NCBI GenBank assembly: GCA_000165345.1
Contig: CM000432.1
Span: 608,001-672,000, forward strand
Direction: 5' to 3'
DNA: 64,000 nt
Shown: one piece after another, positions 17,975-23,500 of the stretch
How positions within the stretch are numbered: position 1 is the first letter of the stretch
Layout: every line of letters starts with the position of its first letter
Position numbers and translations under genes: made by a program
The notes under the pieces: model-generated
The model's database searches: none
What the model was told of the DNA's origin: nothing
The model's input: only the letters and a program-made list of their open reading frames with translations

Positions 17975-19930
17975 ATGCCTTTTTTTTATATTAATAATGC
18001 ATTGAACTATCTCTCAATATGTAACATTTCTATTGGATTCATTCTTGTTCTGAAAAAACTAGCCCAATTAAGTTCTGAATATATAGAAAATAATGTCCCA
18101 TCTAATTTCTCAATATTTTACTCAACGGAAACGGGAAATTCAAGAAAAATATCAGAATTGTTCAAGAAACTACTAGATGAAATAAGCATTGAAGCCAATG
18201 TCCGTGAGATAAACTCGATACTAGAAGAAAACATGTATTTAAATAGTAACAATTCGGTGTTTGTTTTCGTAGTTTCTACATGCGGAAATGGGAGCTTTCC
18301 AGCATCGTCGAGGAAATTCATTCGTTATCTTTCGAAAATGATAAAATCTGGGAATGAAATATTTTTAGGAATCAAATACACTATTATTGGCCTTGGAAGC
18401 TCCTTATATGAATACTCTTTTAATTCTGCGGCTTTAAAGCTTGATAAATTGATCTCTTCACTTAAAGGTGAGAAATATTGCGAAATTGCACTCTTGGACG
18501 AAGTGAATGGTAATGAGATTGATTTTAAAACATGGTGGAACAATACATTTTTAAATAGGCTTGGAATTTCAGATTCAAAAGAACATTTGAACAAACATTT
18601 CAGTATAGCTGTAACGAGAAAAAAAGATGAATTTGTTTGTAAATTGAGAAGTATTAATGAAATCTCACTTTATAATCACTCTCTCTCTGGGAATTGCCAC
18701 GTTTCTGAAATTTACTTCAAGCTAATAGAATTTTGCCCCATTAACAGAGAATTATTATGTGAAACAAAAACTATCGATGGCATTGAAAGACAAATTTTTA
18801 ACTTAAAACTTGAACTTCCTGATAAAGTACAATATAAGACATTTGATATTATCGATATACTTCCACCAAACCTCGATGAAAACATTACTTTTTTTTCAAG
18901 CAAAGTATTGGGAATAAACAGTATCGAAGATTTAAAAAATATTACTGTTGAATTTGTGCCAATAAATAACATGACGAGAAATATCAGTGTCCCATTTCCT
19001 AATAATCGCTCTTTAATGCATATACTAAAGTACTATTTTGATCTTATGACTTTACCTCCTCACTCAGTAATGCTACAATTTGTTCCTTATTTAAATTCAA
19101 TAGAAGGAGAGCTTATTTCCAACGAAAGTTTTTTTAATGAAAATAAGGATTCTTATGAGTTTTCTTTTCATTTATTTATAAATCGTTTTATGAAAAGTCT
19201 TATTCCAATACCAATAGAAAAGTTTGTTAAATTTACTGGAATCAGACAATATCCAAGGAGCTATTCAATTTCATCCTCCTCACTCGCTTCACCATCAATG
19301 ATTGATTTAACAATTAGTACGTGTATTAAGGGCCAAATCTCTGCCCCATTAAATGAAATAATTAGCGAAGGGGCGAATAAAAAGAATTCCAAAAAAATTA
19401 TCAAAGGATTGTGTTCAAGTTTTCTTTTTGAATTTGATTTGAATTTGCCTGTACTAGGAATGATAAGGTCATCTTCTCTCAATATAGACAATGTGACATC
19501 ATCTGCACTAATGTTTTCACATGGGAGTGGTATTGCGCCTATTAGAGCACTATTACATGAACGAAAATATTTAATTAATGAAAAAAAAATTATAAAGCCA
19601 GCGTATTTGTTTTACGGATGCAGAACAGAAAATGAAATAATTTATAAAGACGAACTTAAGGACTTTAAAAGAATAGGTGCATTAACTGAAGTTTTTTTTG
19701 CTTTGTCTAAGACACAAAAAAAATACGTTAAAGACATAATTCCTTTTTATAAACACATCATTTTAAAGGTAGTTGATCAAAATGATTCAATAATATATAT
19801 CTGTGGGAAAAAGGAATTTGTTTCAGGGATCAAAAATGAAGTTGCATCGATCATTTCTAATAATCGTTCGAGAAATATTATTAAAAAAATGTTTGTTGAA
19901 GGTAGAATTTTTATAGAATCATGGAATTGA
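17975..19930 (+). CDS. NADPH-dependent diflavin oxidoreductase (cytochrome P450 reductase / NDOR1-Tah18 family)
   Basis: N-terminal flavodoxin-like FMN domain (IFYSTETGNSRKISE, FVVSTCGNG...P). FAD-binding RQYPRSYSISSS (RxYSIxSS motif). NADPH-binding FSHGSGIAPIRALLHER and YICGKKE...V. C-terminus ...IESWN resembles the family C-terminal aromatic. The N-terminus has a hydrophobic stretch that may be a membrane anchor. Confidence 0.75.
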   Translation: MPFFYINNALNYLSICNISIGFILVLKKLAQLSSEYIENNVPSNFSIFYSTETGNSRKISELFKKLLDEISIEANVREINSILEENMYLNSNNSVFVFVVSTCGNGSFPASSRKFIRYLSKMIKSGNEIFLGIKYTIIGLGSSLYEYSFNSAALKLDKLISSLKGEKYCEIALLDEVNGNEIDFKTWWNNTFLNRLGISDSKEHLNKHFSIAVTRKKDEFVCKLRSINEISLYNHSLSGNCHVSEIYFKLIEFCPINRELLCETKTIDGIERQIFNLKLELPDKVQYKTFDIIDILPPNLDENITFFSSKVLGINSIEDLKNITVEFVPINNMTRNISVPFPNNRSLMHILKYYFDLMTLPPHSVMLQFVPYLNSIEGELISNESFFNENKDSYEFSFHLFINRFMKSLIPIPIEKFVKFTGIRQYPRSYSISSSSLASPSMIDLTISTCIKGQISAPLNEIISEGANKKNSKKIIKGLCSSFLFEFDLNLPVLGMIRSSSLNIDNVTSSALMFSHGSGIAPIRALLHERKYLINEKKIIKPAYLFYGCRTENEIIYKDELKDFKRIGALTEVFFALSKTQKKYVKDIIPFYKHIILKVVDQNDSIIYICGKKEFVSGIKNEVASIISNNRSRNIIKKMFVEGRIFIESWN

Positions 19931-19986
19931 ATTGTATTGAATCCCGCGTCTCTTTGTCTTTGTTCATTTTCTTATTTTTTTTCGAT

Positions 19987-20420
19987 ATGGTGGTAGGTTG
20001 AAACTTGTTCAAATTGATGTTAACATTTGACGATATTTTTAGTTACCTTTATCTGTAATCAGGGCAGCTCATCACAGGCCAATAGTAAGTTGACTCCTAT
20101 CTATGCGAAAAACTTAATTGATTTAGTTGGTAGAGCTAAAAAATGGAGAAACATATTCTGGAATACTAACAGGCGTAGATGGATTTATGAACTTAGCACT
20201 TAATAACGTTATTTGTAATTCAAGAGATGGGAATGGTTTTTTTAAGATGGTTGAGTGTTATATTAGAGGTAATAACATCAAGTTAATCAGAATTAGTGAT
20301 GAGAATATAAATACTGCAAAAGATGATATGACTCAAAGAGAAACTGCTAGGCTCGGAAATAGAGGAAGGCCCAGAAATGAAACAAGAGCTTCGAGAGTTA
20401 GATCTTCTAAATGGGTGTAA
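19987..20420 (+). CDS. LSM4: LSm4 (U6 snRNA-associated Sm-like protein), spliced
   Basis: Exon 3 (20127..20420) encodes [59 protein letters not shown] plus an RG-rich tail. This is a near-identical pattern to LSM4 ([58 protein letters not shown]). The ORF-track start is a TTG directly after an AG. A 42-nt intron (GTAAGT at 20085 to AG at 20126) joins an upstream exon 20043..20084 encoding LPLSVIRAAHHRPI (compare LSM4 LPLSLLKTAQNHPM). The initiator ATG may be an ATG-only first exon at 19987..19989 followed by a 53-nt intron ending TTTTTAG at 20042. Proposed join(19987..19989,20043..20084,20127..20420). Confidence 0.7.
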
Positions 20421-20596
20421 TTACTTTTAACCTGTAATTTACCCAATCATTCTAGCGCTAGGTTAAATTTTTTTTTTTGAAAAAAAATTATTTTCTTCCT
20501 CGAATTCGAGTATGATCTAACCAATCTATAATCTGTCACGCTGCAATTATCAGAAATATTTAATTTAAATCTTGAAAATTTTGCTTAGAAAATTTA

Positions 20597-23500
20597 ATGA
20601 TAGGAAGCGATGATTCTTTTGAACCAAATATACAAAATCAAACTGTTCAATCTTCTATGGCTACAAAGTCTTCAAATACGTTTCATTCCATCTTCAATAA
20701 GGACGAAAAATTGCTTGAAATGAGTTCTCAGTCCTCTTTAAAGGATGTGAACTCATACTCACCAAATATTGCTACATATAATTGTATAGGAAATAATTCA
20801 TCCCCTTCTTCAAGAATTGTATCGCCAATTTCAAGTGCAAGTTTTTTTGTTGATATGACGCCCAATGGAAGGCATTTACTGCACGCAGAAGTAGCTGATG
20901 AAGAACCAAATCCAGAAACTTGCTCGCCTAATCCTCAAAAATTCCTTCAAAATAGGTTAAATTTATTAGCTAGTCGCAACTTGCTAAACCATTATGTTAA
21001 TTCAAACGAAAACAATTACTTCGGAAAACAATTAAGCTCTGATGTTATTTCGAGTATACCTGATTTGCAGTATAATGAAACGGCTGTTCAAGATATGGTT
21101 ATTAATAAGCTAAGCATGTCAACTCAAATGTTACCAGATACAATTGAAGAGGCAAGAAAAAGGGATCCAGAATTTGTCTCAAAAGCATTGGAACAAACTT
21201 TAGAATATAGTGAAGCGCAGAAACCAATACACTATTGGAGTCAAATTGAATTAGATATGCTAATTAACGAGCTATCTGCAAATATCATTGATGGGATTGA
21301 TGAAGGTAAGGCAATAGAGCTCATGGAAAAAAAATATGGCCCAAATAAACTTCAGAAAGAAAAACATGAACCAATTTGGAGAATTTTCCTTAGCCAATTC
21401 ACATCGCTTGTTGTTTCATTGCTATTAGTCGCAGGGATAGTTTCACTAGCGTTTCAAGAATGGGTTGAAGGAATTGGGATTTTATTTATCGTTTTGATTA
21501 ACGCAAGCCTTGCAACATATATGGAAAATAATGCATCTAATGCACTTGCGAAACTAGCGGACTTATCCTCTCCAAAATGCACAGTAATAAGGTCTGGAAT
21601 AATAAATATAATACCTGCATATAATTTAATCCCAGGCGATATTGTGCTGTTGAGAACTGGCGATAGCGTCCCCGCAGATGTTAGGTTAATTGAAGCTACT
21701 GAAATTAAGTGTAATGAAGCTTTGCTTACTGGTGAATCGGAAGATGTATCAAAGCACTTGGTCAGCCCTGATCCAAATAATCCTTTCCCAACAAATATTT
21801 GCTTTGCATCAACTGCAATTACAAATGGAACAGGCAAAGCAATTGTTGTACTTACCGGGATGAACACACAAATAGGGAGGATTGCGCAACAACTGAAACT
21901 TGCAAGCGGTGGTTCAAATAGTGGCACTCCGTTACAAATCGGATTAAATAGGCTTGGGGGATTTATAGGATTTATGTCATTAATCGTATTGGTAATAATA
22001 GTAATTGTGGCTTTGCTCACAAACTATAAAGATCCATCTCATCCGAACAGTAACCCTGTATTCGGTATCATTCTTGTTGCTGTTGGGTTTGCTGTGTCAT
22101 CTATACCAGAAGGTTTACCTATGGTAGTAACAATATGTCTTTCAATTGGGTGCTCTGAAATGTGTAGAAGGAAAGCTAATATTAGAAAGCTACCAGCAGT
22201 TGAGACTTTAGGATGCTGCTCAGTTATTTGTAGTGATAAAACTGGCACGTTAACAGAAGGAAAAATGACAGCAGTTAAATTAGCTACTTTCTCTAGAAAT
22301 AATACCAAGACATTAAATATATCTCCCACAGGTAATGAACAATCACCTTCTTTTGTGGAATACCAAGAAAGTAACTCTTGTGTTTTCTCATTTTACCCTA
22401 CAAGAGGTAGCGACCCAAATGGAGGAATTTTTTTATCGTCTTCTCTCACACAAAATATTAAAGAAGAAATAATGAACCTAATACATTTTAATAAAAACAA
22501 AACAATAGAGATGACAGAAAATCATATTCTTGAAAGTAATTTTGAAATGCCTCCAGATGACAAAATCCCATATAAATTCATTAATTACAATTCAATTTGT
22601 AAAGACTTTGGGGACCCTTTAAATAGCCATCTTCCCCAAACTAAATATGTTAGGAGTGCGCTTTTAGCAGGATACTTAAACAGCTACGGAACTGCCTTAG
22701 TGTATGATAATGAAAGCAATTCATGGAAAACTAGAGGAAATATGAGCGAAGGAGCGATAGTTGTAGCTGCAGCCAAAGCATCTTATGGAATAAAAAATAA
22801 AATTTTTGACTCAAGGAAACAAGATATTGAATCAAAACAAAGTAGTACAAAGAAAAGTGGTCATTTAATTCGTTCTAAATTAAATGATCAGAACTTTAAA
22901 ACCATTAATAATGGGAACAATCCTGCTACTGAAGTTGCTACTTCTGGTAGCTCTCCTACTCAATGCGCACTCGATTCGAACTCCACTGATAGCAATAAAC
23001 TAAAAAATTATATAATTGATGGAGTAAACACAGAAAATAAGACAAATTTGGTTATTGAAGATGAAATTGAGTATTTAAGGGTCCCTTCTGTAGAAGTACC
23101 TTTTACTTCTTCCAGAAAAATGATGATGACTGTACATTCTCTGTCCACACCAAACAAATTTGGAGATATATTTTTTTCAAATACTGATTCAAAATCAAAT
23201 AAACAAACTAATCTTCAAAATAAAGTTTCAAATTCTAATTCTCAGAGGTATTCAAAGACAGTAGATAACCTTGATTCTGGCGTTTACACTCATGTTGCAA
23301 TATTAAAAGGTGCCCCTGACAGAATTGTTAAACATATAGGTTTTATGCTTAATACAGATTGGAAAAATGAAGAACCAATGGTTCATATAGATTATTCGGA
23401 AAAAATAAATCCAAAAGAAATCTTTGAAATAGAAAACACGAATAAAGTTTTGAGTGGGGAAGCCTTGAGAGTTCTCGGAATTGCAATTCTCCCATTAACT

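Follow-up and report, generated by a model that had tools for sequence, protein, structure and literature searches.

LSm4 is a subunit of two heptameric rings, LSm2-8, which acts on U6 snRNA, and LSm1-7, which acts in mRNA decay. The animal LSM4 genes that we examined as outgroups, those of Trichoplax sp. H2 and the oyster Magallana gigas, open with a coding first exon that consists of the start codon only and runs directly into a GTAAG donor (ATG/GTAAGT and ATG/GTAAGC, the slash marking the exon boundary). In both genes this is followed by a 42-nt second exon, encoding LPLSLL..HPM and set between AG and GTAAG, and then by an exon starting LVELKNG. Introns that survive in intron-poor eukaryotes tend to lie toward the 5' end of their genes, and in animals and plants, tandem GYNGYN donors, in which alternative donors lie 3 bases apart, have been described. 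Among the genes of Cryptosporidium parvum, about 10.8% have introns (PMC4637869). The LSm4 gene of this parasite is already known and annotated in public genomes, where its deposited models disagree with one another on where the protein starts and which exons it contains.

Identity and structure of the LSm4 locus

By homology, the region 19987-20420 of our window (the whole 64-kb stretch of DNA that was analysed, which is AT-rich with a G+C of 30%) is the LSm4 gene of C. parvum. The protein joined from the proposed exons matched the Pfam LSM family (PF01423) with E = 4.5e-17 and 61.9 bits (cut-off 23.4) over profile positions 5-65 of 66. Its closest solved structures were human LSm4 (6e-27) and S. 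pombe LSm4 (5e-26), and the top nine distinct sequences in this search were all LSm4 (6e-27 to 1.5e-10), followed by an archaeal Sm protein, SmD3, LSm6, SmD1, and LSm2 at 2e-7 or worse. Unnamed and 'hypothetical protein' entries aside, every database match bearing a name was an LSm4, in agreement with the identity proposed by the first-pass annotation. Residues 3-97 of the joined protein align to residues 2-96 of human LSm4 and, since this alignment is gapless from the LPLS motif onward, the small second exon supplies the true N-terminus of the family, with Val2 being one residue more than in the MLPLS-type LSm4 N-terminus. The C-terminal tail (GNRGRPRNETRASRVRSSKWV) is short and basic and lacks the long RGG repeats of animal sequences. 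Ring assembly, U6 snRNA binding, and the function of the C. parvum protein would follow from orthology.

The gene is flanked by an NADPH-cytochrome P450 reductase-like gene on one side and a P-type ATPase gene on the other. Two C. parvum chromosome-4 assemblies were 100% identical to the window over 19987-20420, while C. hominis differed at 9 positions, of which 3 fall within the proposed introns; exons 1-2 are free of differences. A full-text literature search for cgd4_2710 found no gene-specific paper, and in the supplement of PMC4637869 this identifier stands only in the dN/dS table, with an identity of 1 and a dN of 0.

We consider it highly probable that C. parvum LSm4 has three exons, with the coding part of exon 1 at 19987-19992 and a first intron of 50 nt. 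The features of this model, together with a conserved block in the upstream spacer, are as follows:

19943..19951, + strand: CG-rich block CCCGCGTCT, conserved in the 56-nt spacer; candidate E2F-like promoter element
19987..19992, + strand: predicted coding part of exon 1, ATG GTG (Met-Val); ATGGTG invariant in 8 Cryptosporidium species, and deposited 113-aa models start MV
19993..20042, + strand: predicted intron 1, 50 nt, phase 0, GTAGGT...TTTTTAG; GTARGTT donor invariant, interior poorly conserved
20043..20084, + strand: predicted exon 2, 42 nt, encoding LPLSVIRAAHHRPI; 42 nt in 9 loci, with coding-type variation
20085..20126, + strand: predicted intron 2, 42 nt, phase 0, GTAAGT...GATTTAG; conserved donor, position common to Trichoplax and oyster
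20127..20420, + strand: predicted exon 3, remaining Sm domain and short basic tail, TAA stop at 20418-20420; open reading frame list, Pfam LSM match, LSm4 structures

The landmarks on which the first-pass annotation was built, namely the ATG at 19987 with GTGGTA behind it, TTTTTAG running to 20042, LPLSVIRAAHHRPI at 20043-20084, and GTAAGT at 20085, all lie where it had placed them. The three coding segments (ATGGTG, the 42-nt exon, and the main exon) would be joined by removal of two phase-0 GT-AG spliceosomal introns of 50 and 42 nt, and the predicted product is the 113-aa protein MVLPLSVIRAAHHRPILVELKNG... A product of this length requires 6 + 42 + 294 nt of coding sequence, and the annotated gene span of 434 nt is that of 19987-20420. 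The earlier choice of the ATG at 19987 as the start codon is upheld by this span and by the invariance of ATGGTG. Directly upstream of exon 2, a TAG lies in frame with it at 20040-20042, and the open reading frame at 20127-20420 has 97 codons, starting with a TTG right behind an AG and reaching its first in-frame ATG inside the Sm1 motif. Three further ATGs were considered as starts and rejected: the one at 19921 is inside the upstream gene, the one at 20103 is inside intron 2, and the one at 20017 has no GT behind it before the acceptor, while the GT made by its own G and the next T would cut the codon.

Upstream of LSm4, the reductase-like gene occupies 17975-19930 on the same strand. Its stop (ending at 19930) is separated from the LSm4 ATG by 56 nt, a distance that is 44-65 nt in the other five species for which it was measured. 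Since this same-strand spacer is so short, the 3' UTR of the upstream gene must overlap with the promoter and 5' UTR of LSm4, or the two genes may be co-transcribed. Barring such co-transcription, the true first exon of LSm4 (5' UTR plus ATGGTG) is probably only a few tens of bases long. In C. parvum, there are reports of polycistronic transcripts (bioRxiv 10.1101/2025.01.17.633476). The CG-rich block CCCGCGTCT occurs as a single copy in the 64-kb window, against 0.01 expected by chance. Across species, such a block lies about 35-56 nt upstream of the LSm4 ATG in an otherwise AT-rich spacer, reading CCCGCGTC at 35-44 nt upstream in four species, CCCGCTCA in C. ryanae, and CGCGCGCA in C. felis. 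The motif type met most often upstream of C. parvum genes is the E2F-like GC core (PMC3734150; bioRxiv 10.1101/2025.01.17.633476), and CCCGCGTCT resembles such motifs, including those found in the spacers of the reported polycistronic transcripts. By this resemblance, the CCCGCG block is a candidate E2F-like promoter element.

Exon 2 and the two short introns across Cryptosporidium

We compared the C. parvum locus with the orthologous loci of C. hominis, C. ubiquitum, C. canis, C. felis, C. ryanae, and C. serpentis and with two Cryptosporidium contigs from the Logan assemblies. The same two neighbour genes were present at seven of the eight fetched loci; the eighth, the short SRR31860995 contig, is truncated on the 5' side and retains the downstream neighbour alone. 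Exon 2 was exactly 42 nt long and flanked by AG and GTAAGT in all nine loci. Out of 14 columns for each codon position, 8 first, 3 second, and 13 third positions were variable, and codon differences were synonymous in 159 cases versus non-synonymous in 80, a pattern of variation that, by these counts, is the signature of a translated exon. Between-species identity was 55-90% in exon 2 versus 45-67% in the intron interiors. The exon 2 residues align to residues 2-15 of human LSm4, which are the first residues of the solved LSm4 chains. With the exon conserved in nine loci, varying as coding sequence does, and aligning gaplessly to human LSm4, the proposal that the N-terminus is carried by a separate 42-nt exon holds.

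Intron 1 measured 47-66 nt across species when exon 1 was taken to contribute 6 nt, and intron 2 measured 41-67 nt in the nine loci. Intron 1 runs from GTA(A/G)GT to AG in eight loci and intron 2 from GTAAGT to AG in nine; at the latter, the donor GTAAGTT is invariant in the eight aligned loci and reads GTAAGTC in the ninth, partial locus. Translated unspliced from its ATG, the C. parvum sequence meets a stop after 4 codons, and retention of intron 2 introduces in-frame stops, such that the 50- and 42-nt introns shift or stop the frame. These comparisons support both short GT-AG introns as real, and the two very short introns claimed at the outset have splice sites that are conserved in nine Cryptosporidium loci. 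The predicted exon/intron boundaries of C. parvum LSm4 are thereby shown by cross-species conservation. By inspection, YTRAY-like strings lie upstream of both acceptors; C. parvum has been described as having no clear branch-point consensus (PMC2483917). The spliced junction of exons 2 and 3 (CACAGGCCAATA/TTGGTAGAGC...) had no match in JGI metagenome contigs, and the protein collection held no transcript-derived copy of C. parvum LSm4, as the contigs carrying the 113-aa protein were all genome assemblies. An Rfam scan of 19800-20700 for non-coding RNA in or around the introns returned one match at chance level (E = 0.99 and 19 bits, where the gathering score is 60), and this candidate was rejected.

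Exon 3 opens with ATG (Met), not with TTG or CTC (Leu), in C. canis, C. serpentis, and the two Logan contigs. This probably explains why annotators accepted a model consisting of exon 3 only in such a genome.

Five incompatible public models of the gene exist, with lengths of 77, 97, 97-99, 113, and 743 aa. The 97-99-aa model, deposited for C. hominis (CHM_4g2710), as CPCDC_4g2710, and for C. felis, skips exon 2. In C. parvum, this would join ATGGTG to 20127 across a 134-nt intron, an in-frame splice that uses the same donor and the same final acceptor as the three-exon model and yields a 99-aa protein starting MVLVELK... We regard this structure as very improbable, since the length, splice sites, and coding-type substitutions of exon 2 are conserved in nine loci, the same exon is kept in animals, and skipping it would cost the protein family residues 2-15, which form the conserved LSm4 N-terminus seen in the alignments with solved structures.

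Models that dispense with introns altogether have been deposited as well. They include a 77-aa protein from an internal Met (the original C. parvum Iowa II record, EAZ51257.1, and C. hominis UdeA01), the 97-aa exon-3-only protein of C. canis, and, in Cryptosporidium sp. chipmunk genotype I, a 743-aa variant in which LSm4 forms the 3' end of the upstream reductase. In the species in which exon 3 starts with ATG, the sequence itself offers such a start, whereas in C. parvum the reading frame reaches its Sm1 motif without passing an ATG, so that the 97-aa protein would need the TTG at 20127 and the 77-aa protein would miss about one-third of the Sm fold. Any such model leaves the conserved upstream exon 2 and the ATGGTG without explanation. 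The fusion is contradicted by the C-terminus and stop of the upstream protein (...ESWN*), which are conserved in five species; the ends are different in C. felis, C. ryanae, and C. serpentis. We therefore give an intronless gene almost no credence and retain the three-exon structure. The expectation that ORF-based annotation would miss this gene was borne out insofar as its models are often wrong (77, 97, 99, or 743 aa), but the correct 113-aa model had already been deposited.

Tandem donors at the start of intron 1

Two in-frame GT donors follow the start codon. In the first arrangement (ATG/GTGGTA), exon 1 contributes 3 nt and the intron is 53 nt long, while in the second (ATGGTG/GTAGGT), exon 1 contributes 6 nt and the intron is 50 nt long. 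The first-pass annotation had proposed the former, with a 112-aa MLPLS... product, and had overlooked the second donor at 19993. Since a coding first exon consisting of the ATG only does occur in animal LSM4 genes, this was a reasonable idea. A GT stands directly behind the ATG, the splice would be in frame, and the product would be collinear with human, S. pombe, and all non-apicomplexan LSm4 examined, starting MLPLS as they do. In all 46 LSm4 sequences inspected from outside Cryptosporidium, Filipodium, and Platyproteum, MLPLS stands either at the start or just after an upstream extension; as the valine is absent from every one of them, homology alone would favour the 3-nt exon.

Conservation within the genus points to the downstream donor. 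The 13-mer ATGGTGGTA.GTT is invariant across eight species while its flanks diverge, and ATGGTGGTARGTT is unchanged in the same number. The single variable base makes the intron 1 donor GTAAGT in C. ubiquitum, C. felis, C. ryanae, and the SRR31861040 contig and GTAGGT in C. parvum, C. hominis, C. canis, and C. serpentis. The resulting heptamer, GTARGTT, is the same conserved heptamer that is found at intron 2 in the eight aligned loci. The donor of Cryptosporidium is unusually strict, with GTAAGT beginning 84% of introns (PMC2483917), and GTAGGT has 1 mismatch to this hexamer, as opposed to 4 for GTGGTA. A GT is thus available for a donor directly after the ATG, at 19990, yet the consensus donor GTARGTT begins at 19993 in 8/8 species. 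An intron starting 3 bases earlier would leave the invariance of its positions +4 to +10, and the G at +3, without explanation.

Proteins from relatives and from public annotation give the same picture. The transcriptome-derived LSm4 proteins of Filipodium and Platyproteum begin MVLPLS, as do the annotated proteins of C. meleagridis, C. ubiquitum, C. ryanae, and C. serpentis. The exact 113-aa MVLPLS... protein has been deposited four times, three times from C. parvum (QOY42168.1, locus CPATCC_001781; KAL5369167.1; WRK31857.1) and once from C. hominis (OLQ17035.1, named LSm4), while the 112-aa MLPLS... protein was absent from a collection of 15 billion proteins. CPATCC_001781 (QOY42168.1), CPHLJ_4g2710, OLQ17035.1, POM83699.1 of C. 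meleagridis, and cubi_01432 of C. ubiquitum represent the same gene at the same locus with the same 434-nt span. Our best model equals the deposited 113-aa models, whose product is identical in C. parvum and C. hominis, whereas the earlier 112-aa model lacks their Val2. Comparison with annotated Cryptosporidium LSM4, the check originally suggested, therefore agrees with three exons (113 aa) but gives an MVLPLS rather than an MLPLS start. According to the publication on the CPATCC annotation, RNA-seq backs 100% of its introns, a statement made for the annotation as a whole (PMC8744675).

Together, the consensus donor one codon downstream and the MV of deposited and transcriptome-derived N-termini argue against a 3-nt coding first exon with a 53-nt intron, and we consider it quite unlikely that such an exon gives rise to either the main or a minor isoform from the tandem donors. 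From the splice-site consensus, the conservation, the related transcriptomes, and the publishers' RNA-seq statement, we infer that the donor at 19993 is the one used in vivo. Like GYNGYN tandem donors, GTGGTA(G/A)GT presents two in-frame GT donors 3 bases apart; of the two, only the downstream site fits the consensus in Cryptosporidium. GTGGTA is nonetheless a legal in-frame GT donor and may see minor use in C. parvum.

The valine codon is GTG in 8/8 species and shows no synonymous variation, as opposed to the 13 of 14 third positions that vary in exon 2. This invariance suggests that the codon is constrained by the splice donor (G at -1), by the context of the start codon, or by both, and not by the amino acid it encodes. 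In N-terminal processing, proteins starting Met-Val lose the methionine while those starting Met-Leu keep it, and the mature VLPLS terminus would therefore have the same length as the canonical MLPLS.

Age of the introns and meaning of the gene structure

Cryptosporidium LSm4 shares with the Trichoplax and oyster genes a phase-0 intron at the start of the coding sequence, a 42-nt LPLS...HP(M/I) exon, and a phase-0 intron before LVELKNG. In the two outgroup genes examined, the position and phase of intron 2 match those in Cryptosporidium, and intron 1 lies at the same site but is offset by one codon, the boundary being ATG/GTAAG. in animals and ATGGTG/GTARGT, one codon downstream and with an added valine, in Cryptosporidium. 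Since the 42-nt exon is bordered by introns at these positions in animals too, both LSm4 intron positions are ancient. In other respects the genes differ: the animal introns span hundreds to thousands of bases, compared with 50 and 42 nt in C. parvum, and the further downstream introns of animal LSM4 (e.g., after TSR/TSK) are absent in Cryptosporidium. The two C. parvum introns are also short for this species, for which the published median is 61 nt and the mean 82-99 nt. As in 5'-biased retention, the two introns kept are those nearest the 5' end, and their donors are strong consensus sites, while the animal downstream intron is absent.

To judge by its position, the GTG codon of Cryptosporidium looks like a 3-nt tandem duplication beside the old donor. 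A speculative extension, to which we attach little confidence, is that a very old intron boundary slid by one codon on the way to Cryptosporidium (from ATG/GTAAGT to ATG GTG/GTAAGT), that the tandem donor may give rise to both an MLPLS and an MVLPLS version of this core spliceosome protein, and that the introns were perhaps kept in so intron-poor a genome because splicing of the LSm4 pre-mRNA feeds back on its expression.

The existence of five mutually incompatible protein models for one small essential gene puts annotation quality at stake, and by the comparative evidence it is the three-exon model of 113 aa that should be carried forward. Where tandem GT donors occur, a splice site can be misplaced by one codon if homology to distant orthologues, with their MLPLS start, is the sole guide, and a choice between such donors can be settled by the lineage-specific splice consensus together with cross-species conservation. 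Two by-products of the comparison are a catalogue of the five conflicting public models and the finding that the boundary of an ancient intron is shifted by one codon. Altogether, these findings suggest that a genome in which most introns have been lost kept two intron positions of LSM4 that it shares with animals, the first of them shifted by one codon.
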